Positions 1,941 to 25,179 of a DNA stretch of 58,388 bases are shown here, one piece after another (the first letter of the stretch is position 1; every line of letters starts with the position of its first letter). A program made the translations under genes and the position numbers. The notes beneath the pieces were generated by a model that saw only the letters and a list, made by a program, of their open reading frames with translations, had not been told where the DNA came from and made no database searches. The DNA lies in assembly GCA_036000265.1 (NCBI GenBank), contig DASYGA010000362.1, positions 1 to 58,388 of the forward strand. Reading direction: 5' to 3'. This DNA comes from Steroidobacteraceae bacterium (GTDB taxonomy: Bacteria > Pseudomonadota > Gammaproteobacteria > Steroidobacterales > Steroidobacteraceae).

Positions 1941-3267
<1,327 letters not shown>

Positions 3268-3269
<2 letters not shown>

Positions 3270-3289
3270 AACAGGCCTGCGGCCGTTTT
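3268..3289. terminator. bidirectional stem-loop terminator between convergent purA and the diiron gene
   Basis: AAAAC(A)GGCC-TGC-GGCCGTTTT forms a 9-bp stem with one bulge and a 3-nt loop. A-run and T-run arms give a U-tract on either strand. It overlaps the purA stop codon. Confidence 0.5.
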
Positions 3290-3306
3290 AGAGTTGAGTT
3301 CGGGCG

Positions 3307-4179
3307 TCAGACGCTCGCAGGAATCAGCCGCAAGAGGGCGCGGGCGATTCCCGGAACCAGGCGGGGGCGCTTCAGGCGAGCGTCGTATTCGGCCATGCGC
3401 CGCTCGTTCTCGGTGAGGCAGAGCTCGAGCAACCGGTGCAATGTCACCTGCGTTCCCAGGTCCTGGTGCGCCGTCAGGGTGAAGTTCTCGCCGGAAGCGG
3501 CAGCGGCAGTCTGCGGCTTGCCCATGCTGCGCGCCGTCTTTACCCGGGATGCCACCTGCTTGAGGATGATCCAGGCGCAGCGCAGTCGAAAGCCGGGACG
3601 GCGCCCCCACGGCAGCTGCGAGCGGCGATACTTCACCCAGTTCACGAAGAACAGGATGTGGCGGGCCTCCTCCTGCATCACCGGCTCGAACACCCGCACC
3701 AGCGCGGGCGGAAAGAACCCCGACTCGCGGGCGAGGGCGAACAGGCCGAAGGCGAAGAAGGAGTCGAAGCATTCGCCGAAGCCGGCGAAGAGAAAGTCGC
3801 TCTCCAGCGAGTGCGGCGTGAAGCGCGGCGGCGGCTCGATGGCGATCCGATAATGGGAGGTGAGCGCGACGAGCAGCCGCGCATGGCGCATCTCTTCGAA
3901 GCCCTGCAGCTCGATGGCCTTGCGCACCAGCGGATCGGACTCGAGCACCGCGGCGGCGGCCACGGTGTTTGAAGTCACGTTCTCGGTCGATACCGCCTCC
4001 TGCCAGAAAGGCAGGCTGCGCAGCCGTACGAGCTCCTCCTCCGCGAGCGCCGGCCATGGCATCTGCTCGGGGACGTACTCGACGTGCGTGTCGAGAAAAA
4101 ACTCGGCGAGAAGGCGCCGATGCTCGGCGGATCCGACCGCGAGACTCTCCGACTCAATATTTGCCGGGACCACGGACAT
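3307..4179 (-). CDS. ferritin-like diiron-carboxylate protein, function unknown (last gene of the hpnIJKL unit)
   Basis: ATG at 4179 is preceded by GGAGAG and lies inside ORF 3307..4308. Two ExxH motifs (FEEMRHARL, QEEARHILFF), each preceded about 30-35 aa upstream by a Glu. Overlaps the hpnL 3' end by 26 nt. Confidence 0.75.
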   Translation of the reverse strand: MSVVPANIESESLAVGSAEHRRLLAEFFLDTHVEYVPEQMPWPALAEEELVRLRSLPFWQEAVSTENVTSNTVAAAAVLESDPLVRKAIELQGFEEMRHARLLVALTSHYRIAIEPPPRFTPHSLESDFLFAGFGECFDSFFAFGLFALARESGFFPPALVRVFEPVMQEEARHILFFVNWVKYRRSQLPWGRRPGFRLRCAWIILKQVASRVKTARSMGKPQTAAAASGENFTLTAHQDLGTQVTLHRLLELCLTENERRMAEYDARLKRPRLVPGIARALLRLIPASV

Positions 4180-5143
4180 GTTGCAGCTCTCTCCGTCCTT
4201 CCACCCAATACCATGACAGCAACGCCGGGACTCCGAAGAGGATCTCCCGCATGCGCTTGGCCAGCGACAGCGCCAGGGCGAGCTCGCCATTGACGCCGAG
4301 CAGGGCACCGAATCCGATCAGGCTCGCTTCCTGCACGCCGAGCCCGGCCGGCACCAGGAACGCAAAATTACGCACGGTCATCGTCAGGCTCTCCAGGGCG
4401 ATGGCCGCACCGAAGGGCACCGGGTGCCCGAGCCAGCGCAGAGCGAGCCAGGTCTCCAGCGAGCCGGCGACCATTCCGGTCACCTGCCAGGCCATCGCGG
4501 TCAAGAGGCGCGGCGCATCGGTGCACAGCTCTCGAATGGCGGCATCGAGGCTCGCGGATTGCCCCGCGAGGAAGCTCAGCGTCTGCTCGCCCAGGAAGCG
4601 CACCGCGATGCGCTCCATGCGCTGGAAGATCGAGCCGTAGCGCAGCAGCAGCGCGAGCAGCACCAGGAGCGGCAGGCTCGCGGCAAGCCCGATGAGCACA
4701 TCGTCGGCAAATTGTACCGTGTTCGTGAGCCTGAGCAGGCACAGGACGCCGAGCATGACGAATACATACTGGCTGACGATGGTGAGCACCACCTCGGTCG
4801 TGACGCTGGCCGCGGCTGCGACGCCGTCGACGCCTGTCTCGCAGAGCAGGCGGATCCCGACGATCTCCCCGCCGATGTTCGCCGCCGGCAGCAGACGGTT
4901 GATGCCCTCGCGGACGCTGGCGATCCAGAAGAGACTGGCGATGCGGCTCTCGCGCCAGCGCGCGATGAGCACGCGCCAGCCGAGCGAATCGAGCAGGAGG
5001 GGCAGAGCGTGCAGCGGCACGAGCCAGAGCAGCACCCGGCCGGCGCGGACGAGCGGCACCAGGATGGCGCTGCCTTCGCGCAGGATCAGCCCGATCAGCA
5101 GCGCAAGACCTGCCGCGAGGGCGATGCGGACCGCGACTCTCAT
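4154..5143 (-). CDS. hpnL: hopanoid-associated membrane protein HpnL (UPF0104 / lysyl-PG-synthase-like TM region)
   Basis: Polytopic membrane protein starting MRVAVRIALAAGLALLIG. The ATG at 5143 overlaps the hpnK stop (ATGA). Position after hpnI-J-K matches the known HpnL context. Confidence 0.8.
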   Translation of the reverse strand: MRVAVRIALAAGLALLIGLILREGSAILVPLVRAGRVLLWLVPLHALPLLLDSLGWRVLIARWRESRIASLFWIASVREGINRLLPAANIGGEIVGIRLLCETGVDGVAAAASVTTEVVLTIVSQYVFVMLGVLCLLRLTNTVQFADDVLIGLAASLPLLVLLALLLRYGSIFQRMERIAVRFLGEQTLSFLAGQSASLDAAIRELCTDAPRLLTAMAWQVTGMVAGSLETWLALRWLGHPVPFGAAIALESLTMTVRNFAFLVPAGLGVQEASLIGFGALLGVNGELALALSLAKRMREILFGVPALLSWYWVEGRRELQHVRGPGKY

Positions 5144-6018
5144 GCCGCATGCCGCTCGGCTGTCCGTGCGGCGGCCGAAAGCCGGAAGCCGCCGGTCTGC
5201 GCGCCGCAAGCGGCGATGGCCGCGCGCACCCGGGGGCTCAGCAGAGCGGCGAGCTCTTCCGCGTGGTGGTAGCTACCCATGCTGGCGGCAATGGCGGCGC
5301 CGGACTCGATTGCAGGATGCAGATAGATCTCCGTGACTCCCTCAGGAAGGCTTGCAAGCGCCTCGAGCAGCCTCGTCTCGTTCATCGAGCCGCTGTCCGA
5401 CATGCCGAAAACATAGTCGTTGTGCGCGAGGCGCGCTGCCTTGAGCCGCCGCCGCATCAGTCCCAACCAGGGAGAGAGGAGCCCCGCGACCGCGGGGCCC
5501 GCGATCGCACCCCCTGCGCGGCGCGCGACCCAAGCCGGCTCGCGCGGCAGCCGGACAGCCGGAACACCGAACTCCCCGCCTATGCGTAGCAGCATCTCGA
5601 GCAGCGTTGGATGCAGATGGAAGTGCTTGTGGGCATTGACATGGTCGAGCGACAACCCGCTATCGGCGAAGGCCTGGAACTGCGCGCGGATCTCCGCCTC
5701 GAGCTGGCGGCGCACGGCCGGCAACGCGAAAAAGCGCACACCGTCACGCACCATGTTGGTGCCGAACCGGCCCTGGGCATCGACCAGCGCCGGAATGCTC
5801 CGCGGTGGCAACACCGACCAGCCGTCCGCCAGCACGAGGTGAAGACCGACAGAAAGCCCGGGTAGCTCGCGAGCGAGGCGGACCGCGTCCGCCGCCGCCG
5901 GCGCGCCGACCATGAGGCTGGCAGTGGTGAGTACGCCATCCGTGGCGGCCTGCTCGACGGCACGGTTGACGGCGTCGTGCAGCCCGAAGTCGTCCGCGGT
6001 GATGATGAGGAAACGCAA
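5140..6018 (-). CDS. hpnK: YdjC-family deacetylase HpnK
   Basis: LRFLIITADDFGLHDAVNRAV and HVNAHKHFHLHP are YdjC-like motifs. A TTG start at 6018 leaves a 19-nt gap after hpnJ. The alternative ATG at 6078 would overlap hpnJ by 41 nt. Confidence 0.8.
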   Translation of the reverse strand: MRFLIITADDFGLHDAVNRAVEQAATDGVLTTASLMVGAPAAADAVRLARELPGLSVGLHLVLADGWSVLPPRSIPALVDAQGRFGTNMVRDGVRFFALPAVRRQLEAEIRAQFQAFADSGLSLDHVNAHKHFHLHPTLLEMLLRIGGEFGVPAVRLPREPAWVARRAGGAIAGPAVAGLLSPWLGLMRRRLKAARLAHNDYVFGMSDSGSMNETRLLEALASLPEGVTEIYLHPAIESGAAIAASMGSYHHAEELAALLSPRVRAAIAACGAQTGGFRLSAAARTAERHAA

Positions 6019-6037
6019 CGAGTCGACCGCGGGCAGC

Positions 6038-7462
6038 TCAGGCCTCGTGCGCGTGCAGGAAGCGGAAGAACTCCACACCCTCGCGCAGGCGCCGCTTGGT
6101 CATCTCCCAGCTGCGCAGCATCTCGCCCGTGAGCTCGGCGATCTTGCGCGGCCGGAAGTAGAACGTCTTGTAGAAGGTCTCCACCGCGTGGTAGATCTCC
6201 TTCGCCGGCAGATGCGGGTAGCTGATCGGCGAGAGCTGCACGCCGCTGTCGTTCACCAGGTTGAGGTTGTCGTGGGCGGTGATCCAGCCGTTGTCCACCG
6301 CCTGTTGGTACAGTTGCGTGCCGGGGTAAGGGGCGGCCAGCGATACCTGGATGGTATGCGGATTGATGTCGACCGCAAACCGGATCGTTTCGCGGATGGT
6401 CTCGGCCGTCTCCCCGGGAAGGCCGAGGATGAAGGTGCCGTGGATGGTGATGCCGAGCTTGCGGCAATCGCTGGTGAAGCGCCGCGCGATGTCGGTCTTG
6501 AGGCCCTTCCTGATGTTGTGCAGGATCTGGTCGTTACCGGACTCGTAGCCGACGAGCAGCAAGCGCAGGCCGTTGTCCCGCATCACCTTGAGGGTGTCAT
6601 AAGGGACGTTGGCCTTGGCATTGCAGGACCAGGTGACGCCGAGCTTGCCGAGGCCGCGGGCGATCTCCTCGGCGCGCGGACGGAAGTCGGTGAAGGTGTC
6701 ATCGTCGAAGAAGATCTCCTTGACCTGCGGCATGTTCTCCTTGATCCAGCGCACCTCCTCGATGACGCTCGCGGCGCTGCGCACGCGGTAGCGATGGCCG
6801 CCCACGGTTTGCGGCCACAGGCAGAAGGTGCACTTGGAGCGGCAGCCGCGTCCCGTGTAGAAGGACACGTACGGATGCTGCAGATAGCCGATGAAGTAGT
6901 TCTCGATGGTGAGGTCGCGCTGGTAGACCGGGGTTACCCAGGGCAGCTCGTCCATCTGCTCGATCATGGGCCGCGCGGGATTGTGCTCGACCTTGCCGTC
7001 CGGGCGGCGGAAGGACAGCCCGGCAATGGTGCCGAGATCGCGGCCCTCGGCCACCTCCTTGCAGGTGTAGTCGAATTCCTCGCGGGCCACGAAGTCGATC
7101 GCGGCCGAGGCGCCGAGCGACCCCGCCGGGTCGACGGCGACCTTGGCGCCGACCAGGCCGATCTTCAGGCGCGGGTTCTCCTCCTTCAGCAGCTCCGCGA
7201 CCTTGGCGTCGGTCGGGAAGGAGGGGGAACTGGTGTGCATGATGACGAGGTCGTATTCCTTCGCGAGCGGCAGCACCTGCGACATCGGAGTTCCGTCCGC
7301 GGGGGCATCGAGCAGCCGGCTGCCGGGGACGAGCGCAGCGGGTTGCGCCAGCCAGGTGGGATACCAGAAGGATTTGATCTCGCGCTTCGCCTGGTAGCGC
7401 GCGCCGGCGCCGCCGTCGAAGCCGTCGAATGAGGGAGCTTGCAGGAACAGTGTTCTCATCAT
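6038..7462 (-). CDS. hpnJ: hopanoid biosynthesis radical SAM protein HpnJ
   Basis: MMRTLFLQAPSFDGFDGGAGARYQAKREIKSFWYP N-terminus. CRSKCTFC (CxxxCxxC) radical SAM cluster motif. 474 aa, between hpnI and hpnK. Confidence 0.9.
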   Translation of the reverse strand: MMRTLFLQAPSFDGFDGGAGARYQAKREIKSFWYPTWLAQPAALVPGSRLLDAPADGTPMSQVLPLAKEYDLVIMHTSSPSFPTDAKVAELLKEENPRLKIGLVGAKVAVDPAGSLGASAAIDFVAREEFDYTCKEVAEGRDLGTIAGLSFRRPDGKVEHNPARPMIEQMDELPWVTPVYQRDLTIENYFIGYLQHPYVSFYTGRGCRSKCTFCLWPQTVGGHRYRVRSAASVIEEVRWIKENMPQVKEIFFDDDTFTDFRPRAEEIARGLGKLGVTWSCNAKANVPYDTLKVMRDNGLRLLLVGYESGNDQILHNIRKGLKTDIARRFTSDCRKLGITIHGTFILGLPGETAETIRETIRFAVDINPHTIQVSLAAPYPGTQLYQQAVDNGWITAHDNLNLVNDSGVQLSPISYPHLPAKEIYHAVETFYKTFYFRPRKIAELTGEMLRSWEMTKRRLREGVEFFRFLHAHEA

Positions 7463-7474
7463 GATGAAATGTCC

Positions 7475-8677
7475 TCAGGAAATCGGCTGCACGGAGCCAT
7501 CGCGGGCCACGCGGTAGCGGCCCTGCCGCCACTGCACTTCGCGGGTCACGAAAGCGCCGCACCAGAGAGCAAACCCGAGCGCATCGGCGAGCGGGATGGC
7601 CCAGAGCTGGGACCGGGAGCGCTCCGGGGACGGCCCGGCTGCGCCCGCGGCCCGGGCGGCAAAATGTAACATCAGGCGCAGTACTGCCGTCGCGGCAAGC
7701 AAGGAGAGCGTCAGGAATGTCCCATCCGCAATTACGCACCCGAGCACTGCGACCGGCAGACTGAAAGTGACTGCGGAGAAGGCGTATCCGCCTGGACGCA
7801 CGACCCGGATGGTCCGTAGCCACCTGAGGCCGTGCTGCGAGAGTTGACGGAAGCTGCGTTCGTCAACGGCGGTATCCACCACGACGTCCGATAACTCCGT
7901 CCGTTGACCGCGGCGGCGCGTCAGCTCGCCGAGCCGGTAATCATCCGCCAGCTGATCGGCGATGGCCGGGAAGCCGCCGATGCCCTCGAGAGCATCGCGC
8001 CGCAAGGCGATGGTGGCGCCGAAGGCGAAGGCGCGCGAGCCGAAGAGAGCCGCAACGCGCACCGAGGGAATGAACCAATCGTTGATGAAGAGTGTCCCCA
8101 GCAGGGACCAGAGGCCGGGGCGAGGGACGCCGCGATAAGGGCAGGTGACGATGCCGACCGCCGGGTCGGCGAGCGGCGCGGCAACCGCGGCCAGGTATCC
8201 CGGCGGCACGCGCACGTCGCTGTCGGCCAGTACCAGCCAGTCGTGTCGGGCGGCACGCATCATGTTGATGAGATTGCTGACTTTCGCGCTGGCGCCATGC
8301 CGGGTCGGATCGACGACCACGGCGACATCGAGCCGCGGGAAGTCGCGCTTCAGGCCCTCGAGCACGACGAGGGCCGGGTCGGCCGCATGCTGCACGCCGA
8401 AGACGATCTGCAGGCCGGCGGGATAGTCCTGCTCACAGAAGGAGCGCAGCGAATGGTCAAGCCCAGGCTCGGCGCCGCACAGCGGCTTGAGCACGGTCAC
8501 CGGATGCAGCGGCCCCGCCGAGCCCCCGCCGAGCCTGCGCTGCACGCCACTGTTGCGCCAAAGCCGCACTGCCCCCCAGGCGATGGCGGCATAGCCGAGC
8601 GCGGCCGCGCTCAGCAGCGTGCCGAGAGAGGTCATGACTGCCTGGGCAGTTACAGCGACCGTGGAGCCGGTTATCAT
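7475..8677 (-). CDS. hpnI: hopanoid-associated glycosyltransferase HpnI (GT2, ceramide-glucosyltransferase-like)
   Basis: VTVLKPLCGAEPGLDHSLRSFCEQDYP and LVLADSDV motifs. N- and C-terminal TM segments. First gene of the hpnIJK(L) unit. Confidence 0.85.
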   Translation of the reverse strand: MITGSTVAVTAQAVMTSLGTLLSAAALGYAAIAWGAVRLWRNSGVQRRLGGGSAGPLHPVTVLKPLCGAEPGLDHSLRSFCEQDYPAGLQIVFGVQHAADPALVVLEGLKRDFPRLDVAVVVDPTRHGASAKVSNLINMMRAARHDWLVLADSDVRVPPGYLAAVAAPLADPAVGIVTCPYRGVPRPGLWSLLGTLFINDWFIPSVRVAALFGSRAFAFGATIALRRDALEGIGGFPAIADQLADDYRLGELTRRRGQRTELSDVVVDTAVDERSFRQLSQHGLRWLRTIRVVRPGGYAFSAVTFSLPVAVLGCVIADGTFLTLSLLAATAVLRLMLHFAARAAGAAGPSPERSRSQLWAIPLADALGFALWCGAFVTREVQWRQGRYRVARDGSVQPIS

Positions 8678-8752: not shown

Positions 8753-9406
8753 ATGGTACACGTTTGCTTGCCGTCCGGGGGTGCCTGCGTGACCGACACC
8801 AGCGGCGCTCAGGCCACACTGTGGGCTGCCAGCGACAGCTCCAAGGAGGCCGAGTCGCTCATTCTCGTGGACGAGGCGGACCGGGAGGTGGGCTATTTGA
8901 GCAAGGTGCGCTGTCACGAGGGACGGGGTGTCCTGCACCGCGCGTTCTCGCTGCTCATTTTCAACGATCGCGGCGAGCTGCTGCTGCAGCGTCGCTCGGC
9001 CGCGAAGCCGTTGTGGCCGCACTACTGGTCGAACAGCTGCTGCAGCCACCCGCGGCGGGCCGAGACCATGGAGACGGCCATCCACCGGCGGCTATATGAG
9101 GAGCTGGGGCTTGCCTGTCCGCTACAATTCCTTTTCAAGTTCCAGTATCAGGCTCAGTTCGACAGTGTCGGCGCGGAGCATGAGCTGTGCTCGGTCTTCA
9201 TCGGCCGCAGCGGCGGCCGGGTGAGCATCGATCACAACGAGATCTCGGACTGGCGCTGGGTGAGCACCGAGCGGCTCGCCGAGGAGATGGGGGGCGCGGG
9301 TGCGGAGCGCTTCACTCCCTGGTTCTCTCTCGAGTGGGCACGGATTTGGCGGGACCACCTGCCGGCGCTGCATGCGTTACAGTCGCGGCGCGGGACCTCG
9401 AGCTGA
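8753..9406 (+). CDS. idi: isopentenyl-diphosphate delta-isomerase, type 1 (Nudix)
   Basis: HRAFSLLIFNDRGELLLQRRSAAKPLWPHYWSNSCCSHPR and RRLYEELG motifs. An alternative in-frame GTG start lies at 8789. Confidence 0.88.
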   Translation: MVHVCLPSGGACVTDTSGAQATLWAASDSSKEAESLILVDEADREVGYLSKVRCHEGRGVLHRAFSLLIFNDRGELLLQRRSAAKPLWPHYWSNSCCSHPRRAETMETAIHRRLYEELGLACPLQFLFKFQYQAQFDSVGAEHELCSVFIGRSGGRVSIDHNEISDWRWVSTERLAEEMGGAGAERFTPWFSLEWARIWRDHLPALHALQSRRGTSS

Positions 9407-9429
9407 GCCCCGTAACACAGGAGCTGATT

Positions 9430-10578
9430 TTGGGAATTCCACTGATTCAAAAGTATCGCGTGGCAAGCTACATCCTCGGCAAGAAATTTCGCCGGGAGAA
9501 GCGCTACCCGCTAGTGCTCATGCTGGAGCCTCTGTTCCAGTGCAATCTCGCCTGCGCCGGCTGCGGCAAGATCGACTATCCAAAGGAAGTCCTGCAGAAG
9601 CGGGTATCGGTCGCCGATGCCCTGCGGGCGGTCGATGAATGCGGGGCGCCGATGGTCTCCATTCCCGGAGGCGAGCCGCTCATCCACAAGGAGATGCCGC
9701 AGATCGTCGCGGGAATCGTCGCGCGCAAGCGCTTCGTCTATCTCTGCACCAACGCGATCCTGCTCGCCAAGCACATCGACGACTACCAGCCCTCGCCCTA
9801 TCTCACCTTTTCGGTGCACCTCGACGGCAACCGCGAGCGGCACGACGAGTCGGTGTGCCAGGAAGGGGTATTCGACAAGGCGGTCGCTGCCATCAAGCTC
9901 GCGCGCTCCCGGGGATTTCGCTGCACCGTCAACTGCACGCTGTTCCAAAAGGAGAAACCGGACGAGGTAGCCGACTTCTTCGACTTGGCCCAGTCGCTCG
10001 GCGTCGAGGGGATCACCGTCTCCCCCGGCTACAGCTATCAGCACGCGCCGCGCCAGGACGTGTTCCTGGGGCGTGATGCGAGCAAGCAGCTCTTCCGCGA
10101 AATCTTCAAGCGCGGCCGCGCACGCGGCGCCAAGTGGCCGTTCAACCAGTCGTCGCTGTTCCTGGACTTCCTGGCGGGAAACCAGACCTATCAGTGCACG
10201 CCGTGGAGCAATCCGACCTACAACCTCTTCGGTTGGCAGCGGCCGTGCTATCTGCTGACGGACGAGGGTTACGCCACGTCCTTCCGTGCCCTGATGGAGG
10301 AGACGGACTGGGAACGCTATGGCGTCGGCCGCAACCCCAAATGTGCCAACTGCATGGCCCACTGCGGCTTCGAGGGCACGGCCGTGGACGACACGTTCGC
10401 GCATCCGCTGAAGGCGCTGAAGGTAGCCCTGCGCGGGCCGCGGCTCGACGGCCCGATGGCGCCGGAGCTGCCGTTCCTCTACGACGATCAGCCGCCACCG
10501 CCGCTGGCGGTGATCCCGCTCGCCGACATCGGGCGCGCGAGCCGCAAGGAGGAAAGCCGGCGTGCCAGCCGTGCCTGA
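9430..10578 (+). CDS. hpnH: adenosylhopane synthase, radical SAM HpnH
   Basis: TTG at 9430, 6 nt after AGGAG, inside ORF 9187..10578. YRVASYILGKKFRREKRYPLVLMLEPLFQCNLACAGCGKIDYP contains CxxxCxxC. About 382 aa. Confidence 0.9.
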   Translation: MGIPLIQKYRVASYILGKKFRREKRYPLVLMLEPLFQCNLACAGCGKIDYPKEVLQKRVSVADALRAVDECGAPMVSIPGGEPLIHKEMPQIVAGIVARKRFVYLCTNAILLAKHIDDYQPSPYLTFSVHLDGNRERHDESVCQEGVFDKAVAAIKLARSRGFRCTVNCTLFQKEKPDEVADFFDLAQSLGVEGITVSPGYSYQHAPRQDVFLGRDASKQLFREIFKRGRARGAKWPFNQSSLFLDFLAGNQTYQCTPWSNPTYNLFGWQRPCYLLTDEGYATSFRALMEETDWERYGVGRNPKCANCMAHCGFEGTAVDDTFAHPLKALKVALRGPRLDGPMAPELPFLYDDQPPPPLAVIPLADIGRASRKEESRRASRA

Positions 10579-11467
10579 GGCGTTCGCCGGTCAGCTCGAG
10601 GCTTGGCGCACCCGGATGGAGGCGGCGCTCGCGGCCCGGCTGCCGCGGGCCGACCAGACACCCGAGCGGCTGCACGCGGCGATGCGTTACAGCGTGCTCG
10701 GTGGCGGCAAGCGGGTGCGCCCGATCCTGCTGCTCGCGACGGCGCGTGCGCTCGGACTCGAGGAGCAGCAGGTGGAGGCGGCCGCCTGCGCGCTGGAGTT
10801 GGTCCACGTCTACTCCCTGGTGCACGATGACCTGCCGTCGATGGACGACGATGACCTGCGCCGCGGCCGGCCCACCTGCCACAAGGCCTATGACGAGGCG
10901 ACGGCGCTGTTGGTGGGCGATGCCCTGCAATCCCTCGCCTTCGAGCTGCTCGCCCGCGACCCGGCTCTGCCGGCCGATCCGGCCATCCGCGTGCGTCTGG
11001 TGCAACTGCTTGCCGCTGCGATCGGCAGCGTCGGCATGGCGGGCGGTCAGGCCATCGACCTCGAGGCCGAAGGCCGCAAGCTCGCCATCGCCCAGGTCGA
11101 GCAGATGCACGCCCTGAAGACCGGTGCGCTGATCCGCGCCAGCGTAATGATGGGGGCGGCCTGCGTGCCGACGCTCGAGCCGCAACTGGTGCAGGCGCTC
11201 GCCGGCTTCGCGGCTCCGATCGGACTGGCCTTCCAGATCCAGGATGATCTGCTCGACGTGCTCTCCGATACCGTGACGCTCGGCAAGGCGGCGGGCGCCG
11301 ACCGCGAGCGCGGCAAGCCCACCTATCCGGCCGTCGTCGGCGTGGCGGCCTCCCAGGAGCAGGTACGTCGCCTGCACAGCGCGGCCATGGAATCGCTCGC
11401 GCCGTTCGGCAGCGGCGCGGATGCCCTGCGCGGCGTCACCGACTGGCTGCTCGCCAGGCGCAATTGA
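10562..11467 (+). CDS. ispA: farnesyl diphosphate synthase (geranyltranstransferase)
   Basis: First Asp-rich motif LVHDDLPSMDDDDLRRGRPT and second FQIQDDLLD. GTG start at 10562 (or 10571) overlaps the hpnH end. Confidence 0.9.
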   Translation: MPAVPEAFAGQLEAWRTRMEAALAARLPRADQTPERLHAAMRYSVLGGGKRVRPILLLATARALGLEEQQVEAAACALELVHVYSLVHDDLPSMDDDDLRRGRPTCHKAYDEATALLVGDALQSLAFELLARDPALPADPAIRVRLVQLLAAAIGSVGMAGGQAIDLEAEGRKLAIAQVEQMHALKTGALIRASVMMGAACVPTLEPQLVQALAGFAAPIGLAFQIQDDLLDVLSDTVTLGKAAGADRERGKPTYPAVVGVAASQEQVRRLHSAAMESLAPFGSGADALRGVTDWLLARRN

Positions 11468-11501
11468 CCGGAGGTCCGAGCTCGTGGAATCCGTTTCCGC
11501 C

Positions 11502-12596
11502 ATGTCCGATGAGGCTTACCAGGACGAGATCCTGCCGCACGTCTCGCGTACTTTCGCGCTGACCATCCCGCAGCTTCCGGCGGCGCTTCGCACCGCGGTG
11601 ACCAGCGCATATCTGCTCTGCCGCATCGCCGACACCATCGAGGACGAGCCGGCACTGTCGGCTGCCGACACATTCGTCTTTCTCGAGCGCTTCACCGCGG
11701 TGGTGAGGGGCACGGAGGATGCGGGGCGCCTCGCGCGGGATGTCGTGCCGAGGCTTTCCGACCGCACGCTGCCCGCCGAGCGCGATCTCGTCGCCAACAT
11801 GGACAGGGTCATCCGCGTGGTGGGGGGGTTCGACGAGCGCCAGCGCGCCGCGATCCGCCGCTGCATCGAGGTGATGAGCCGCGGCATGCATCAGTTCCAG
11901 CGCACCGCAAGCCTCAAGGGGCTCGCCCGCTCGACCGACATGGATTCGTACTGCTACTACGTGGCGGGAATCGTCGGCGAGACCCTGACCGAGCTCTTCT
12001 GCGCCTACTCGCCTGCCATCATGCGCCACTACGCCACGCTCTACGAGCTGGCGCCTTCGTTCGGGCAGGGCCTGCAGATGACCAACATCCTCAAGGATGT
12101 CTGGGAGGACCGCAGCCGCGGCGCCTGCTGGCTGCCGCAGGAGGTCTTCAGCCGGTACGGGGTCGACCTCGCTCAGCTCTCGGCGGAGCACAGCGATGAG
12201 CGCTTCCACGCGGGCATGCTGGAGCTCATCGGCGTCGCACACGGCCATCTGCGCAACGCGCTCGCCTTCACGCTCCTCATTCCCGGGGAGGAGGCGGGCA
12301 TCCGGCTCTTCTGCCTGTGGGCGATCGGCCTTGCGGCGCTGACATTGCGCAAGATCCAAACGACGCCCGGATTCACGGCCGGCGCCCAGGTAAAAGTCTC
12401 CCGATCGGCAGTGATGATGACCCGGACACTGACAGGTCTTTCGGTGCGCAACGACCGGATTCTGCGGCAGCTTTTCGCGCGTGCCGCGCGCGGCCTGCCG
12501 CTCGCGGAAGGACAGGTGCCGCGCAAGCCGGCGGTGTACGCCCCCGCGGTGGACGACCTCGGAGCCTCCACGCAGCTCGGAGGCTCGCTCCGATGA
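11502..12596 (+). CDS. sqs: squalene synthase (single-enzyme Sqs type, farnesyl-diphosphate farnesyltransferase)
   Basis: ATG at 11502 inside ORF 11421..12596. VSRTFALTIPQLPAALRTAVTSAYLLCRIADTIEDE and YCYYVAGIVGE resemble bacterial/eukaryote-type SQS rather than HpnC/HpnD. 364 aa. Confidence 0.85.
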   Translation: MSDEAYQDEILPHVSRTFALTIPQLPAALRTAVTSAYLLCRIADTIEDEPALSAADTFVFLERFTAVVRGTEDAGRLARDVVPRLSDRTLPAERDLVANMDRVIRVVGGFDERQRAAIRRCIEVMSRGMHQFQRTASLKGLARSTDMDSYCYYVAGIVGETLTELFCAYSPAIMRHYATLYELAPSFGQGLQMTNILKDVWEDRSRGACWLPQEVFSRYGVDLAQLSAEHSDERFHAGMLELIGVAHGHLRNALAFTLLIPGEEAGIRLFCLWAIGLAALTLRKIQTTPGFTAGAQVKVSRSAVMMTRTLTGLSVRNDRILRQLFARAARGLPLAEGQVPRKPAVYAPAVDDLGASTQLGGSLR

Positions 12597-14521
12597 ATGC
12601 GGCCGCGGCGCAGAGCGCCCGTTATCCGAGCAATCTCGACAAGGCGATCGGCGCGGCGCGGGACGCGCTCATCCGAACACAGAAGCCCGACGGGCACTGG
12701 CTGTTCGAGCTCGAGGCCGACTGCACCATTCCGGCCGAATACATCCTGATGATGCATTATCTGGATGAGATCGAGCCGGAGCTCGAGCGCAAGCTGGCGG
12801 TTTACCTGCGCGAGCACCAGGCCGCCCATGGCGGCTGGCCGCTCTACTTCGGTGGCGAGCTCGACTTGAGCTGCACCGTAAAGGCGTACTACGCGCTGAA
12901 GCTGGCGGGGGATGATCCGCAGGCGCCCCACATGCGTCGCGCCCGCGAGGCGATCCTCGCGCGCGGTGGCGCAGCGCACGTCAACGTCTTCACGCGGATC
13001 GCGCTCGCGCTTTTCGGCCAGGTTCCCTGGCGGGCGGTGCCCTACATCCCCGTCGAGATCATGTTGATGCCGAAGTGGTTCCCGTTCCACATCGACAAGG
13101 TCTCCTACTGGTCGCGGACCGTGATGGTGCCGCTGTTCGTGCTCTGCACGGTGAAGCCCTTGGCACGCAACCCGCGGCGGGTGGATGTGCGCGAGCTCTT
13201 CACCCAGCCGCCGGAAGAGGAGCGCCACTATTTCCGGCTGCCGCGCGAGGGAAAACTGCTCGCGCGGATATTCTTCGGCATCGATCGCCTGGCGCGCTGC
13301 ATCGACCCGCTGATCCCGGCGGCGATGCGCAAGGCCGCTATGCGGCGTGCCGAGGCCTGGGTGCTCGAGCGCCTCAATGGCGAGGACGGGCTCGGCGCGA
13401 TCTTTCCCGCCATGGTGAACGCGCTCGAGATGATGGTGCTGCTCGGCTACCCCGCGGATGATCCGCGACGGGTCACCGCCAAGCGCGCGATCCAGAAGCT
13501 TCTGGTGATCAAGGGCGAGAGGGCGTACTGCCAGCCCTGCGTCTCACCCGTGTGGGATACGGCGCTGGCGGCGCTTGCCATGCAGGAGGCCGGCGACAGC
13601 CAGTCGGTCCACGCCGCCGTGCGCGCGCTCGACTGGCTCGTGCCGCGGCAGGTGCTGGAGGATGTCGGGGACTGGCGCGCGCGCCGGCCAGGCGTGCGCG
13701 GCGGCGGCTGGGCGTTCCAGTTTGGCAACGCGCACTATCCCGACCTCGACGACACGGCGGTGGTCGCCTGGGCCATGCATCAGGCGCGCTTGCCGCAGCG
13801 CTACGGTGTGGCAATCGAGCGGGCGCTCGACTGGCTGGTCGGCATGCAGAGCGAGAACGGCGGCTTTGCCGCTTTCGATGCTGACAACACCCATTACAAC
13901 CTCAACTACATCCCGTTCGCGGATCACGGCGCACTGCTCGATCCGCCGACCAGCGACGTGACGGCGCGCGTGCTCTCCGTGCTGTCGCTCATCGGCCGGC
14001 CGCAGGATCGTATCGCGATCGAGCGCGCCCTGGCTTATCTGCGGCGGGAGCAGGAGGCCGACGGCTCCTGGTTCGGCCGCTGGGGCAGCAATTTCATCTA
14101 TGGAACCTGGTCGGTGCTCATGGCGCTGGAGCTTGCCGGCGTCCCGGCCGAAGACCCCGCGGTGCGCCGCGCCGTGGTTTGGCTCCTGTCGCGACAGAAC
14201 GAGGACGGCGGCTGGGGCGAGAGCAACGACAGCTACGACCTGGAGAAGTACCGCGAGAGCAGTTTCGAAAGTACGCCGTATCAGACAGCGTGGGCGGTGC
14301 TGGCGCTCATCGCCGCGGGCGAAGGCAGATCGCCGGCAGTGGGACGCGGCATCGACTACCTGCTGCGCACCCAGGAGAGCGACGGACTGTGGTCGCATCC
14401 GACCTTCACCGCGCCCGGGTTCCCGCGGGTGTTTTATCTGAAGTATCACGGCTACAGCGCCTTCTTTCCGCTCTGGGCGCTCGCCGCCCATCGCCGCAGC
14501 GCCGAGCCGCCTCTGTCTTGA
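12593..14521 (+). CDS. shc: squalene-hopene cyclase
   Basis: ATG at 12593 overlaps the sqs stop (ATGA). DGHWLFELEADCTIPAEYILMMHYL, the DxDDTA motif (YPDLDDTAVVAW) and repeated QW-type segments (QNEDGGWGE). 642 aa. Confidence 0.95.
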   Translation: MNAAAAQSARYPSNLDKAIGAARDALIRTQKPDGHWLFELEADCTIPAEYILMMHYLDEIEPELERKLAVYLREHQAAHGGWPLYFGGELDLSCTVKAYYALKLAGDDPQAPHMRRAREAILARGGAAHVNVFTRIALALFGQVPWRAVPYIPVEIMLMPKWFPFHIDKVSYWSRTVMVPLFVLCTVKPLARNPRRVDVRELFTQPPEEERHYFRLPREGKLLARIFFGIDRLARCIDPLIPAAMRKAAMRRAEAWVLERLNGEDGLGAIFPAMVNALEMMVLLGYPADDPRRVTAKRAIQKLLVIKGERAYCQPCVSPVWDTALAALAMQEAGDSQSVHAAVRALDWLVPRQVLEDVGDWRARRPGVRGGGWAFQFGNAHYPDLDDTAVVAWAMHQARLPQRYGVAIERALDWLVGMQSENGGFAAFDADNTHYNLNYIPFADHGALLDPPTSDVTARVLSVLSLIGRPQDRIAIERALAYLRREQEADGSWFGRWGSNFIYGTWSVLMALELAGVPAEDPAVRRAVVWLLSRQNEDGGWGESNDSYDLEKYRESSFESTPYQTAWAVLALIAAGEGRSPAVGRGIDYLLRTQESDGLWSHPTFTAPGFPRVFYLKYHGYSAFFPLWALAAHRRSAEPPLS

Positions 14522-15267
14522 AGCCCATCGGCATCGTCTCGGCGCTCGCCGCCGAGGCGCGCACCCTCGGGCCCGCGGCGCCCCATGGGGCGGGTGTGAG
14601 TCAGCTCGCCGATGGGGCGCTGCTGGCCGTGAGCGGGATGGGGGAGAGCGCCGCGGCCGCCGCGGCGCGCAGGCTGGTGCTGGCGGGCGCCACGGCCCTG
14701 GTGAGCTTCGGGATGGCCGGGGGACTCGATCCGGCACTGATCTGCGGCACCGTGCTGCTGCCGGACGAAGTCGCGGTCTGTGGCCGCGGCGATCCGGAAA
14801 GCACGGGCTGCGCCACCTCGCGGGAGTGGCGGCAGCGCCTGCGCGCCGCCCTGCCGGTCTCGTGCATCGTGTGCGAAGGCAAGCTCCTCACGAGCGCGCG
14901 CCCGCTCGGCCATCCGGATGCCAAGGCGGCAGCTTGGCGAGCTTTCCGCGCCGCTGCGGTCGATATGGAGAGCGCCGCCATCGCGCAGGTCGCCGGACAG
15001 GCCGGGCTGCCATTCATCGCGCTGCGGGTCATCGTCGATACGGCCTCCGATGAGTTGCCTGCGGCGGTCATCGCCGCAAGCGCCGGTGGACAACTGCGGA
15101 TCGGGGTGCTGCTCACGGGTCTGCTGCGCGCGCCGGGCGATGTCGGAGGCTTGATACGCCTCTCCGCGCGCTACCGTATCGCGCGGCGCGTGCTCACGGC
15201 CGCGGCCCGGCCGGGATCGGCATCGCGGCGCGCGCTGGTCGGCGGTCCTGAGGGACGGACATCATGA
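14518..15267 (+). CDS. hpnG: hopanoid-associated phosphorylase / adenosylhopane nucleosidase HpnG
   Basis: TTG at 14518 overlaps the shc stop. PNP/UDP-phosphorylase-like segments IGIVSALAAEARTL, SFGMAGGLDP and AAAVDMESAAIAQ. Confidence 0.8.
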   Translation: MKPIGIVSALAAEARTLGPAAPHGAGVSQLADGALLAVSGMGESAAAAAARRLVLAGATALVSFGMAGGLDPALICGTVLLPDEVAVCGRGDPESTGCATSREWRQRLRAALPVSCIVCEGKLLTSARPLGHPDAKAAAWRAFRAAAVDMESAAIAQVAGQAGLPFIALRVIVDTASDELPAAVIAASAGGQLRIGVLLTGLLRAPGDVGGLIRLSARYRIARRVLTAAARPGSASRRALVGGPEGRTS

Positions 15268-16325
15268 GATCGCCCGGAGCACCCTTTGACGCGGCGCAGC
15301 CGCGGCCCGGAACGGGCGAGACTCGCGATGGGCCGGGCAAAGCTCTGGTGACCGGGGCGACCGGATTCGTCGGTGCCGCGGTCGTTCGCGCACTCCTTGC
15401 CGAGGGGTGGCAGGTGCGTGCGCTGGTGCGCGCGGGGTCGGACCGGCGCAACGTCGCAGCGCTCGCGGTCGAGCAGGTCGTGGGTGATCTGACGGACAGC
15501 GCATCCCTGGAACGGGCGCTCGCGGGATGCCAGGCTGCCTTTCACGTGGCCGCCGATTACAGGCTGTGGGCGCCGCGGCCGCAGGAGCTCTATTGCACCA
15601 ATGTCGATGGCACCGGGCACCTCCTCGATGCGGCCCGGAGCGCGGGGGTGCGGCGCATCGTGTACACGAGCAGCGTTGCAGCCGTGGGACTGCCCGAGGA
15701 CGGCCGGCCGGGCGCTGAAGATACTCCCGTGGGACTCGACGACATGATCGGTCACTACAAGCGCTCGAAGTTTCTCGCCGAAGAGCGCGCACGCGCAGCG
15801 GCGGCCGCCGGCGTGCCGGTCGTGATCGTCAATCCCTCCACGCCCATCGGGCCGGGGGACGTCAAGCCGACACCCACGGGCCAGATCGTGCTCGATGCGG
15901 CCCGCGGCCGCACGCCGGCCTATGTCGATACGGGACTCAACATCGCGCACGTGGACGATATCGCGGCGGGCCACCTGCTGGCCTTTCATCGCGGGCGGAT
16001 CGGCGAGCGCTACATTTTGGGCGGTGAGGACATGACACTGCGTCAGATCCTGACCCTCATCGCACAACTCGTCGGCCGAAGGCCGCCTCGCATCCGGCTG
16101 CCGCATGCCGCCGTCCTCCCCGTGGCATACGTGGCGGAGCTCTACGCGAGATTGACCGGCCGTCCCACGCGCGTGACGGTGGAAGGGGTGCGCATGTCCC
16201 GCAAGCATATGTTCTTCTCGAGCGACAAGGCCGTGCGCGAGCTTGGGTACGGATGGCGGCCGCCCGCAGAGGCGTTTGCCGATGCGCTGCGCTGGTTTCG
16301 CGAGCACGGTTATCTCGCAGACTAG
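15264..16325 (+). CDS. hpnA: hopanoid-associated NAD-dependent sugar epimerase/dehydratase-like HpnA
   Basis: Rossmann motif VTGATGFVGAAVVRAL and YxxxK (HYKRSKFLAE). The ATG overlaps the hpnG stop (ATGA). Confidence 0.85.
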   Translation: MRSPGAPFDAAQPRPGTGETRDGPGKALVTGATGFVGAAVVRALLAEGWQVRALVRAGSDRRNVAALAVEQVVGDLTDSASLERALAGCQAAFHVAADYRLWAPRPQELYCTNVDGTGHLLDAARSAGVRRIVYTSSVAAVGLPEDGRPGAEDTPVGLDDMIGHYKRSKFLAEERARAAAAAGVPVVIVNPSTPIGPGDVKPTPTGQIVLDAARGRTPAYVDTGLNIAHVDDIAAGHLLAFHRGRIGERYILGGEDMTLRQILTLIAQLVGRRPPRIRLPHAAVLPVAYVAELYARLTGRPTRVTVEGVRMSRKHMFFSSDKAVRELGYGWRPPAEAFADALRWFREHGYLAD

Positions 16326-16365
16326 AAGGGGCACAGACTAGAAGGGGCACAGACTAGAAGGGGTA
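16318..16365. repeat. 3 x 16-bp perfect/near-perfect tandem repeat (CAGACTAGAAGGGGCA) spanning two convergent stop codons
   Basis: Copies at 16318-16333, 16334-16349 and 16350-16365, the last with C to T at its 15th base. Copy 1 carries the hpnA TAG. Copy 3 carries the stop (CTA) and last codons (..YPF) of the Omp85 gene. Confidence 0.9.
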
Positions 16366-17790
16366 TCCTATGCCCGTGAAGACCGCGATGCCTTCGTGGC
16401 CTTTGCCGATGTCCACGTAGCCGACGACCGAGGGCGGTGCGATCCCGCGGAATCCCACTCCCATCACATTGTGCAGGTGTCTGACCGGAAACGTGCTGGT
16501 GCCGTGGAAGACCCGTCCGGTATCGAAGAACGGGGCGACCTGCAGGTCGATATGCGTCCCGAGCGCGTCGATCGAGAGGACGGTCTGGCGCAGCTCGATG
16601 TTGGCGGAGAAGGAGTTGCGGTCGTAGAAGCGCCCGTCGCCGTAACCCCTCAGGGTCTGCGAGCCGCCCAGGGTGCTCGTGTCGCCGCCCAGGCTGCTCA
16701 GCGCCCAGAAAGGCACGTGGTGCGCGGTGGGCTCGTAGCGCAGAGCCACGTGAGTCGCCACCACGAGCGAGTGATACGGCGACCAGTAGAACCGCGCATC
16801 GCCGCCGGCCTCCGTGAAGAGTGAATTGTCCAACTCGACGTTACGGCTCGCGATACCGCCGTAAGCGACGAGCTCCATGCCTCGGGTGGGAATCACGATG
16901 TCGTCACGGGTGTCGTAGACCAGCGAGATGCGATTCAGCAGCTCGTGCGTGGTGCCGATGCCGATGATGTCCGCGAACCGCTCGGTGATCGGCGGCACGC
17001 CCTTGAGATCTCCAGCCAGAACCTTGACCTTCCTTGCGGTGAAGGTGTACGCCAGCTGCCAGGCATGGGTGATGTTCCAGCCCACCGTGGTGGTGACGCC
17101 GAGCTGCTGGTCCGTGTAGACAGTCTGATTGATCTTGAAGGAGTTGTTGCCGATACCGTAGAAGCGGGGCGTGCCGCTGCGATCGTAGAGGCCCTCGACC
17201 GTGAGCGACAGGAGCTTGTGCCGCAGGAGCCCGGTCTGATAGAGCGCATCGAGTGTGCTCTCGATGTGCTGCTCCCCGCCGCCGACGATCGACCACTGGG
17301 TGTCCTCCGACGGGAACGCGAGGATGCGGCCGTGCGCGCCCCAGCCGAAGTACGGGTTGTGCATGATGTCGGGCGCGACGATGGCGGTGATCTCGCTGCG
17401 GGAATTGGTCACCAGCATCGTCGGAATGATGCCGAGCGTGGTGCCGCTGTTGGGGTCCACCGCCGTGAGCGGAACCGGCAGCACGGGCCAGGTGGTGGGA
17501 TTCAGCCAGTTGACGTTCCGCCGCGGTCTCGCAGTTTGGGGCGCGAGCGGCCGGATCGGCCCCTGGATCTGCGGCGCATGGACGGGTGCGGGCGGCGCGG
17601 CGGCGGGGGCGCCTTGCGCTGCGGCGGGGCGCGCCGCGAGGCAAAGCGGCACCGCGGCGATCAGCCCGAGCGCTGCACGGATGGACGGGCTTGGGCTATG
17701 CTTAACGAAACACACGTCTTTCAAGGCAATCAGCACGCTCTCCGCGGCGTTGGGACCGCGGCTTCGGTTGCAGATCAAGGAAGCCAGCAT
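16354..17790 (-). CDS. Omp85/surface-antigen (D15) family outer-membrane beta-barrel, apparently without POTRA domains
   Basis: LRGYGDGRFYD (L6 RGY/F motif), APFFDTGRVF (FxDxG-like) and a C-terminal ...GIGYPF aromatic end. Signal-like AALGLIAAVPLCLAARPAAAQ followed by a Pro/Ala-rich linker. An alternative GTG start at 17715 gives a cleaner signal peptide. Confidence 0.8.
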   Translation of the reverse strand: MLASLICNRSRGPNAAESVLIALKDVCFVKHSPSPSIRAALGLIAAVPLCLAARPAAAQGAPAAAPPAPVHAPQIQGPIRPLAPQTARPRRNVNWLNPTTWPVLPVPLTAVDPNSGTTLGIIPTMLVTNSRSEITAIVAPDIMHNPYFGWGAHGRILAFPSEDTQWSIVGGGEQHIESTLDALYQTGLLRHKLLSLTVEGLYDRSGTPRFYGIGNNSFKINQTVYTDQQLGVTTTVGWNITHAWQLAYTFTARKVKVLAGDLKGVPPITERFADIIGIGTTHELLNRISLVYDTRDDIVIPTRGMELVAYGGIASRNVELDNSLFTEAGGDARFYWSPYHSLVVATHVALRYEPTAHHVPFWALSSLGGDTSTLGGSQTLRGYGDGRFYDRNSFSANIELRQTVLSIDALGTHIDLQVAPFFDTGRVFHGTSTFPVRHLHNVMGVGFRGIAPPSVVGYVDIGKGHEGIAVFTGIGYPF

Positions 17791-17889
17791 GGCGAAAAGG
17801 TGGGCCGATTATATCTATCCGCGGACTGGCGGTCTTGCGGACCGGGTTGCAGGGTCAGGCGAGGTCGTGCCTCAGCTGTCGGTTGCGCA

Positions 17890-25062: not shown

Positions 25063-25179
25063 GATTTTCGCGGCGGCACTCACGGCGGCTATCGTAGCCG
25101 CATCCCTTGCCGGAGGGGCGCTCGTTGTGCTCGTGCAACAACGGTGCGCGCCGGGCGCGCGCGGCTTAAACTGGCGGGC

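Follow-up and report, generated by a model that had tools for sequence, protein, structure and literature searches.

The window analysed here is a stretch of 58,388 nucleotides from a Steroidobacteraceae bacterium (contig DASYGA010000362.1). It carries a hopanoid supercluster of about 16 kb, in which the terminal gene of an hpnIJKL operon encodes a 290-aa protein of diiron type (Table 1). This protein belongs to the ferritin-like diiron superfamily and, within it, to a new and unnamed hopanoid-associated family that divides into two groups, A and B; the window holds a copy of group A and none of group B. On its 3' side the gene is followed by a convergent purA and by hflX. We argue below that O2-dependent tailoring of hopanoids is a reasonable role to propose for this family.

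The gene is tightly joined to hpnL. A GGAGAG motif lies 9 nt 5' of the ATG at 4179, and the stop codon of the hpnL frame (4154-4156) gives an overlap of 26 nt between the two genes; translation and coordinates thus bear out this start, this Shine-Dalgarno sequence and this overlap, all three proposed in an earlier note on the same DNA. The start is further supported because most of the 120 relatives listed are 290 aa long and align over the whole query. The overlap is about 23 nt in a related locus (L004, tblastn matches) and 4 nt in Acidithiobacillus (L068, coordinates of open reading frames, ORFs). The earlier note also made it the last gene before a bidirectional terminator. Last gene of the cluster it is; the terminator part holds less well, the hairpin that separates it from purA being a weak candidate for a possible bidirectional terminator, with a z-score against shuffled sequences of only -1.24 and no call in a scan for consensus terminators. 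The 290-aa protein lacks a signal peptide, and none of its segments reaches the hydrophobicity of a transmembrane helix (highest Kyte-Doolittle mean over 19 residues, 1.43). We favour a cytoplasmic or membrane-peripheral protein, whose basic helix 191-220 could serve as an interfacial anchor.

Table 1. Features of the window at and around the diiron-type gene (positions in the 58,388-nt window).
Feature	Positions	Strand	Evidence or remark
Small hairpin with A and T runs on its flanks, between convergent purA and the diiron-type gene	3266..3291	.	dG -12 kcal/mol
Diiron-type protein, coding sequence, group A, 290 aa	3307..4179	-	translation, homologs, AlphaFold2, Foldseek
Second E-E-x-R-H: E170 E171 A172 R173 H174; predicted ExxH pair E171/H174	3658..3672	-	aligns to MiaE-like SEARH
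E136-C-F-D139, predicted helix-3 carboxylate ligand(s)	3763..3774	-	helix register level with E171/H174
First E-E-x-R-H: E95 E96 M97 R98 H99; predicted ExxH pair E96/H99	3883..3897	-	aligns to EELEH of 5ux1 and 8fhb
E66 codon, predicted helix-1 carboxylate ligand	3982..3984	-	120/120 group-A sequences; helix register level with E96
Coupling region: GGAGAG 4189-4194, ATG 4177-4179, 26-nt overlap with the 3' end of hpnL	4154..4194	-	
hpnL, flippase-like membrane protein	4154..5209	-	TIGR03476, 294.9 bits (cutoff 195.65); PF03706 LPG_synthase_TM
hpnK	5140..6078	-	TIGR03473, 400 bits
hpnJ, B12-binding radical SAM enzyme	6038..7462	-	TIGR03471, 824 bits
hpnI	7475..8677	-	TIGR03472, 433 bits
Divergent hopanoid core: idi, hpnH, ispA, sqs, shc, hpnG, hpnA contiguous; later hpnB	8753..19089	+	NCBIfam
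Omp85-family outer-membrane protein gene, between hpnA and hpnB	16354-17790	-	
HetI-like 4'-phosphopantetheinyl transferase gene, straight after hpnB	19099-19872	+	
1486-aa ORF	21721-26181	-	SOGP/GH94-type glycoside phosphorylase domains

Pfam and NCBIfam scans of the window protein returned no family at E <= 0.01. None of the Hpn models of NCBIfam/TIGRFAM matched it either, while the neighbouring genes do match HpnL, HpnK, HpnJ, HpnI and HpnH, so that the gene stands outside the named Hpn families, as had been supposed. Relatives are nevertheless abundant: more than 4500 homologs were found by a word-indexed search, mostly in Steroidobacteraceae genomes, those bearing a name being called "ferritin-like domain-containing protein" or "hypothetical protein", and phmmer against 1.84 billion cluster representatives gave 743 clusters at E <= 1e-3, with 108 clusters at E <= 1e-30. 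Forty diverse full-length representatives (27-50% identity) were aligned as input to AlphaFold2. The resulting model is all-helical and of high confidence (mean predicted local distance difference test, pLDDT, 91.7; predicted template-modelling score, pTM, 0.89), and it predicts four long core helices, 59-79, 83-109, 125-153 and 158-188. The profile and structure searches that the earlier note had called for were run, and they agree with the ferritin-like fold it proposed: the best-ranked Foldseek matches in the PDB are diiron or dimanganese proteins, namely class I ribonucleotide reductase (RNR) R2/NrdF, R2lox and AurF, with a probability of about 1 and template-modelling (TM) scores of 0.40-0.49. 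The predicted fold class is thus clear, and none of the solved structures is close. At the level of sequence, the window protein alone and a group-B profile both found nothing among PDB sequences. The profile of the 40-member alignment gave 2fzf as its top match, marginal and partial, followed by the MiaE-like 5ux1 and 8fhb in second and third place (E 0.087-0.14), with both ExxH motifs aligned.

A relaxed Pfam scan of 41 members did not attach the family to any known one, all 16 Pfam matches being below threshold. The commonest belong to ferritin-like families: Rubrerythrin (16/41 members) and AurF (13/41), then DUF455, Ferritin_2, COQ7, EncFtn-like, RNR small chain and MiaE. We accordingly set aside AurF (PF11583), which scores 14.8 bits for the window protein against a gathering score of 29.6; MiaE (PF06175)/DUF455, PF06175 matching a single member of the 41 at E 0.038; and the RNR small subunit (PF00268), with two members at E 0.037 and no nrd context, Pfam and NCBIfam scans of the window neighbourhood having found no nrd gene. 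Ferritin, bacterioferritin, Dps and rubrerythrin were likewise rejected: no match exceeds the threshold, the protein has 290 aa where about 160-190 aa would be expected, and a ferritin chain appears in the Foldseek list at rank 48 only, with a TM score of 0.18. Protein size and structural neighbours led us to reject a role in iron storage. The longer members of the family carry no fused reductase or lipid-binding domain, only read-through chimeras with fragments of HpnK, HpnI and HpnA. With AurF, MiaE, R2, rubrerythrin and COQ7 all below threshold, we consider the family as new.

The residues predicted to bind metal were compared across the family. A duplicated Glu/ExxH pattern defines the ferritin-like diiron-carboxylate oxygenases and desaturases, such as RNR R2, acyl-ACP desaturase, AurF and MiaE. 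It was recognised here by the earlier note; of the positions listed there, E66, E96/H99, E136 and E171/H174 are borne out by conservation and E61 is not: this last position is E in 70 and I in 47 of 120 distinct group-A sequences (at least about 42% identical to the window protein). All 120 keep E66, E95, E96, R98, H99, E136, D139, E170, E171, R173 and H174, so that the motif is really a duplicated E-E-x-R-H, and the six canonical ligand positions (E66, E96, H99, E136, E171, H174) are invariant among them, as are the equivalent positions in 13 group-B sequences. A pattern conserved at 100% in 120 relatives is not a matter of chance. The spacings from Glu to ExxH are 30 and 35 residues. In the helices of the AlphaFold2 model E66 comes to the same height as E96 in the hairpin of helices 1 and 2, and E136/D139 to that of E171/H174 in the hairpin of helices 3 and 4; judging from this register, the ligands would converge on a dimetal site. 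Further invariant residues (H20, D82, R98, Y110, R173, N180 and W181) point to a specific pocket.

The neighbourhood of the gene was compared in 80 genome loci (L001-L080), drawn from GTDB representatives at one genome per species and searched by tblastn with the Hpn proteins of the window itself. Among the 54 Steroidobacteraceae-like genomes (L001-L054), 51 have an hpn gene in the locus and 42 have HpnL directly adjacent; among the 26 genomes of other taxa (L055-L080) the figures are 18 and 17. For 80 metagenome contigs seeded with group B (L081-L160), many of them too short for the wider gene context, they are 46 and 38. Besides, hpnI, hpnJ or hpnK often adjoin the family, in 44 of the 54 Steroidobacteraceae-like loci and in the contigs L082-L085, L120 and L159.

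The order of the genes varies. The arrangement of the window, hpnI-J-K-L-gene, is found next to one that lacks hpnJ, hpnI-K-L-gene, in the Steroidobacteraceae loci L035, L037, L038, L039, L040 and L044; such clusters either stop at bacteriohopanetetrol (BHT)-glucosamine or have the ring contraction carried out by a gene located elsewhere. In six other loci (L020, L031, L041, L046, L047, L053) the gene stands alone, divergent from idi-hpnH-ispA and beside hpnA-shc-sqs, without hpnIJKL. Acidithiobacillus has hpnI-J-K-hpnN-hpnL-gene-hpnH-hpnM-mlaA-like, and the megaplasmid of Cupriavidus metallidurans CH34 has gene-hpnB-hpnA-hpnH-hpnM-hpnN. These orders, different from one lineage to another, argue against a simply inherited synteny. 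Read-through gene calls among the cluster representatives, in which members of the family are merged with pieces of HpnK, HpnI or an HpnA-like epimerase, bring further independent evidence of adjacency. The recurrence of hpn genes beside the family in different taxa and in different orders makes it hopanoid-associated in an operational sense, that of a microsynteny kept between lineages. An absence of linkage to hpn genes elsewhere, which the earlier note had named as a ground for dropping its proposal, is not what we observe: the synteny extends over Steroidobacteraceae, Acidithiobacillus, Cupriavidus, Alphaproteobacteria and soil metagenomes. We also observe, in the Acidithiobacillus locus (L068, 12052-13520), hpnM and then a gene for an MlaA-like lipoprotein directly after hpnH, an order in line with the transport pair hpnM/hpnS put forward in bioRxiv 10.1101/2025.07.29.667474.

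The family divides in two in a distance tree: group A, that of the window protein, and group B, whose members are 35-40% identical to A. In seven alphaproteobacterial genomes (Stellaceae and relatives) A is followed by B and then by a true HpnL (278-286 bits), on one strand (L072 9911-12758, L063, L067, L073, L074, L077, L078). The same A-B-hpnL cassette occurs in many of the contigs L091-L158 and in L167 (1423-4229); in the scan seeded with group B, 43 of the 80 metagenome contigs carry both paralogs and 29 the whole cassette. A Burkholderiales genome has the trio A-B-LPG_synthase_TM in its pre-called genes. The cassette is thus widespread: it occurs in Alphaproteobacteria, in a Burkholderiales genome and in metagenomes of soil and peat, frequently at a distance from the other hopanoid genes. 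Several contigs tie the A/B pair to the genes of cyclitol ether synthesis: hpnI-J-K-A-B-hpnL-hpnA-hpnB..shc..hpnH in L159, hpnI..hpnJ-B-hpnK in L084, B-hpnJ-hpnI in L085, hpnK-A-B in L120, hpnI-hpnN-hpnM-A-B in L109 and B-hpnL-hpnA in L140. Recurring neighbours of the soil cassettes (YidC, an amino-acid kinase, a HAD hydrolase, a DHQ synthase) were discarded as lineage synteny rather than function. Three contigs carry a fusion of A and B, an uninterrupted ORF of 583-586 codons (L122 4126-5877, L145 6834-8591, L157 1034-2794). As proteins of R2 type are dimeric, these fusions suggest an A/B heterodimer, which A and B probably form in bacteria that have both.

The literature leaves room for such a family. 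The function of HpnL is reported as unknown, and the genes for bacteriohopanepentol (BHpentol), for the hexol and for unsaturated bacteriohopanepolyols as unidentified in spite of inspections of hpn neighbourhoods (PMC12583986; bioRxiv 10.1101/2025.07.29.667474), in agreement with the statement of the earlier note that genes for hopanoid modification steps were not firmly assigned. The diiron-type family is mentioned neither in these two papers nor in the supplements of PMC12583986. Its only trace that we found is in a figure legend, in which the Acidithiobacillaceae cluster is drawn without comment as "sqs-hpnFGAIJKNL-ferritin-hpnHM" (PMC8886135). The cultured genera that we found to carry the family are Burkholderia, Caballeronia, Cupriavidus, Paraburkholderia and Acidithiobacillus. 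The homolog searches made for a correlation with the chemotypes of cultured Alphaproteobacteria (PMC12583986) had only metagenome-assembled genomes in their top 120 matches, and no cultured species. Burkholderia cenocepacia, whose second replicon carries a homolog of group A (plasmid/chromid collection), is reported to make BHT cyclitol ether, an analogue of it that is unsaturated and, putatively, cyclitol ethers of BHpentol (PMC8560942).

Putting these data together, we give a probability of about 0.55 to the following reading: this uncharacterised diiron-type family is devoted to hopanoid (bacteriohopanepolyol) metabolism in this lineage and, together with HpnL, catalyses an O2-dependent oxidation of an extended hopanoid. 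The gene itself, its fold class, the invariant ligand positions and the synteny are established by the data above, with good support for both fold class and hopanoid linkage; what concerns metal content, use of O2, substrate, reaction and contact with HpnL is here inferred. The proposal of the earlier note, an oxygen-dependent modification of the hopanoid skeleton or side chain, thus has partial support. The protein would bind two Fe (or Mn/Fe) ions at E66, E96, H99, E136 and/or D139, E171 and H174; the reduced dimetal centre would activate O2 and, on the cytoplasmic side of the inner membrane, oxidise an extended hopanoid. Either the side chain would be hydroxylated beside the polyol, which leads from tetrol to pentol and hexol forms, or a double bond would be introduced into the rings (delta-6 or delta-11); the in silico data do not discriminate between hydroxylase and desaturase. 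HpnL, related to the flippase domain of MprF, may hand over the lipid in the way that Coq9 delivers substrate to Coq7, or flip it. Since the gene persists beside core hpn genes in loci without hpnIJK, the feature it acts on is more likely to lie in the side chain or the rings than in the cyclitol head group. The presence of two paralogs would match two hydroxylations (C-31, C-30) or two double bonds (delta-6, delta-11). A more daring version, which we regard as possible but rather doubtful, makes A and B the O2-dependent C-31/C-30 hydroxylases or delta-6/delta-11 desaturases; the two would form a (hetero)dimer of R2 type and, docked on HpnL, a three-part membrane oxygenase.

Several observations weigh against this reading. 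It is based as a whole on sequence, on a predicted model and on synteny. The likeness to known diiron enzymes is remote, Foldseek giving E values of 0.0076 or more and TM scores below 0.5. It is not obvious why strict pairing with a flippase-like protein should be needed for desaturation of the rings or hydroxylation of the side chain, and no reductase partner is encoded near the gene in the window. The chemotypes do not all fit: the hopanoids cited for A. thiooxidans/Acidithiobacillales are BHT, aminotriol, BHT cyclitol ether and adenosylhopane (PMC8886135), and the absence of pentols and unsaturated forms from this list is at odds with hydroxylation as with desaturation, unless minor products were missed. 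Finally, 8 of the 26 genome loci outside the Steroidobacteraceae have no hpn gene within 10 kb. The hpn-free loci are those of Rokubacteria, three Elusimicrobiota, Acidobacteriota, Myxococcales, Thermodesulfobacteriota and two Alphaproteobacteria, and their neighbouring genes are mutually unrelated (PhoD, PBP1, an SSF transporter, HtrA, a GGDEF protein). In one of the Elusimicrobiota (L062, 9983-11739) the family member overlaps the start of a downstream gene for an LpxL-like lipid A acyltransferase, which hints that some members may act on another lipid. Around the copy of B. cenocepacia no hpn gene was found within 25 kb on either side, its neighbours coding for an AAA ATPase, a TnsA-like protein and a DUF2345 protein. 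As hopanoid genes are often dispersed, an absence within 10 kb is weak evidence; such loci weaken the hopanoid association and do not break it.

Oxidoreductase genes were seen at some other loci: one for a pyridine-nucleotide-disulphide oxidoreductase just 3' of the family member in Rokubacteria (L056, 11164-12585), and others, paired with a DedA/VTT membrane protein, at 1.5-2.5 kb from hpnL in the soil contigs L141 (13239-15367), L143 and L144. They could be reductase partners or a coincidence.

The family could also act, with HpnL, on the polar head made by HpnI, HpnK and HpnJ (glucosamine or aminocyclitol) rather than on the skeleton or the side chain, for example by an AurF-like oxygenation of the amine or by placing a hydroxyl group on the sugar or cyclitol prior to flipping by HpnL. 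The frequent contact of the family with hpnI, hpnJ and hpnK goes in this direction, as does the membership of HpnL in the MprF flippase-domain family (PF03706), which acts on lipid head groups bearing an amino group (bioRxiv 10.1101/2025.07.29.667474). The closest Pfam resemblance of the window protein is also to an N-oxygenase, AurF, for which one homolog has a precomputed PF11583 match; however, the match of the window protein is far below threshold. The gene is found beside idi-hpnH, hpnA-shc or hpnB without hpnIJK, in the six loci of the third arrangement and in C. metallidurans, and hpnIJK are likewise missing within 10 kb of many A-B-hpnL cassettes. We know of no N-oxygenated cyclitol ether hopanoid, and we hold an action on the head group to be unlikely. 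Slightly less likely still is a diiron oxygenase of membrane lipids or small molecules in general, recruited to hopanoids in some lineages only, with HpnL or another lipid enzyme as partner. The diverse genome loci without nearby hpn genes, the LpxL-like gene overlapped in Elusimicrobiota, the unrelated context of the B. cenocepacia copy and the housekeeping genes that surround most soil A-B-hpnL cassettes would all be explained in this way. On the other hand, some of the cultured carrier genera do have hpn genes beside the gene, the others presumably produce or can produce hopanoids, and the scattering of hopanoid genes takes much of its force from an absence within 10 kb. The partner in the cassettes also remains a bona fide HpnL by the cutoff of TIGR03476, a hopanoid-associated family (bioRxiv 10.1101/2025.07.29.667474).

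Two further explanations keep the gene within the hopanoid pathway and give it another task. It might be a redox or iron-handling protein of rubrerythrin or ferritin type that oxidises no substrate (a peroxidase, a ferroxidase or an iron donor) and shields or supplies HpnH and HpnJ, radical-SAM enzymes sensitive to oxygen, or else a structural subunit of HpnL; the weak Rubrerythrin matches of 16 of the 41 members, the "ferritin" label of the Acidithiobacillus cluster figure (PMC8886135) and the proximity of radical-SAM genes would agree with it. But the length of 290 aa and the best structural matches (R2, R2lox, AurF) designate an enzyme class and not ferritin, Dps or rubrerythrin, no rubredoxin domain is present, the invariant residues H20, D82, R98, Y110, R173, N180 and W181 point to a specific pocket, and the linkage to hpnL stays tight even where no radical-SAM gene is near; we give this explanation little credit. 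Hardly any remains for an O2-dependent counterpart of HpnJ, one that would turn BHT-glucosamine into the cyclitol ether when oxygen is present. The model for it is chlorophyll synthesis, with its pair of the diiron AcsF and BchE, and it draws on the relation of HpnJ to BchE (the HpnJ of the window also matches TIGR02026) and on the six Steroidobacteraceae loci with hpnI-hpnK-hpnL-gene and no hpnJ in the cluster. Yet the window and most loci carry both genes, group B lies directly beside hpnJ in L082, L084 and L085, and loci devoid of any hpnI or hpnK also keep the gene; this usual co-occurrence with hpnJ makes a substitute for HpnJ unlikely. The ring contraction is moreover redox-neutral, which would be unusual for an O2-activating diiron centre, and deletion of hpnJ, as reportedly observed by Schmerk et al. 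in 2015, abolishes the production of cyclitol ether in B. cenocepacia under oxic growth.

The rest of the window calls for a few remarks. The true start of hpnL is probably downstream of 5209. The hpnB match (17917-19086) is located beyond the Omp85-family ORF of the opposite strand; neither this ORF nor the HetI-like gene that follows hpnB is a known hopanoid gene. Past about 19.1 kb the window is unrelated to hopanoids. There the 1486-aa phosphorylase-like ORF is overlapped by long plus-strand ORFs, one of them with a class IV aminotransferase domain, so that the coding strand is ambiguous between 24.6 and 26.2 kb.

Hopanoids and the products they leave in the fossil record serve widely as biomarkers, and a conserved diiron-type family physically tied to hpnL is a concrete candidate for an unassigned step of hopanoid modification. 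Should this step depend on O2, it would constrain the reading of such lipids in the sediment record. If the three-part oxygenase exists, HpnL would gain a function, as would an entire new Hpn family, and the pentol and hexol or unsaturated hopanoids would be molecular markers of oxygen availability. The family, which has no Pfam or NCBIfam model, could be defined as such, with subgroups A and B. Its homologs in B. cenocepacia, in C. metallidurans CH34 and in Acidithiobacillus make the hypothesis directly testable, the first two of these bacteria being genetically tractable.

Among known diiron systems MiaE (PF06175) offers a close parallel in its ligands, with a ferritin-like four-helix core, the same E/ExxH/E/ExxH pattern and similar spacings: the crystallographic site of Pseudomonas putida MiaE is E38/E69/H72/E122/E151/H154, with spacings of 31 and 29 (PMC7515727). 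MiaE is the tRNA ms2i6A37 hydroxylase, which uses O2 to hydroxylate an isoprenoid-derived side chain (PMC7515727). It differs from our protein, however, by a profile E value of only about 0.1 and a Pfam MiaE match in one member of 41, below threshold; by size, the family having about 290 aa with a conserved N-terminal extension (G-S-x-x-H20; W42-P43) and about 100 extra C-terminal residues; and by context, tRNA modification against lipid biosynthesis. R2lox and RNR R2/NrdF are the best structural matches to the model, with a similar length and helical architecture, and with only 8-16% sequence identity and no RNR context for our gene. The radical tyrosine of R2 is not evident four residues after H99, where by our own estimate of the register L103 is found. 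R2lox binds a long-chain fatty-acid ligand at its dimetal site, and R2 proteins act as dimers, a dimerisation that would fit the A/B pairing and the A-B fusions. The N-oxygenases AurF and CmlI (PF11583) provide the only Pfam model touching the window protein, over residues 156-211; no arylamine pathway is found near our gene, and AurF has an additional His ligand.

For hopanoid desaturation, candidates of the "sterol desaturase"/FA_hydroxylase family (hpnX; POZ53527) have been proposed (PMC12583986). They share with our family the unassigned step for which both are put forward; they differ from it as integral-membrane diiron enzymes with histidine motifs and an unrelated fold, encoded outside hpn clusters, and their distribution matches that of unsaturated hopanoids imperfectly (PMC12583986). 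The case of Coq7, AOX and PTOX is one of functional analogy, no homology being evident beyond the superfamily level and Pfam COQ7 matching two of the 41 members at scores under the threshold. All are diiron-carboxylate enzymes, soluble or monotopic, whose substrates are isoprenoid lipids embedded in the membrane, and Coq7 depends on Coq9 to present the lipid to it. By analogy, the association of Coq7 with Coq9 would parallel the role that we propose for HpnL beside the diiron-type protein.

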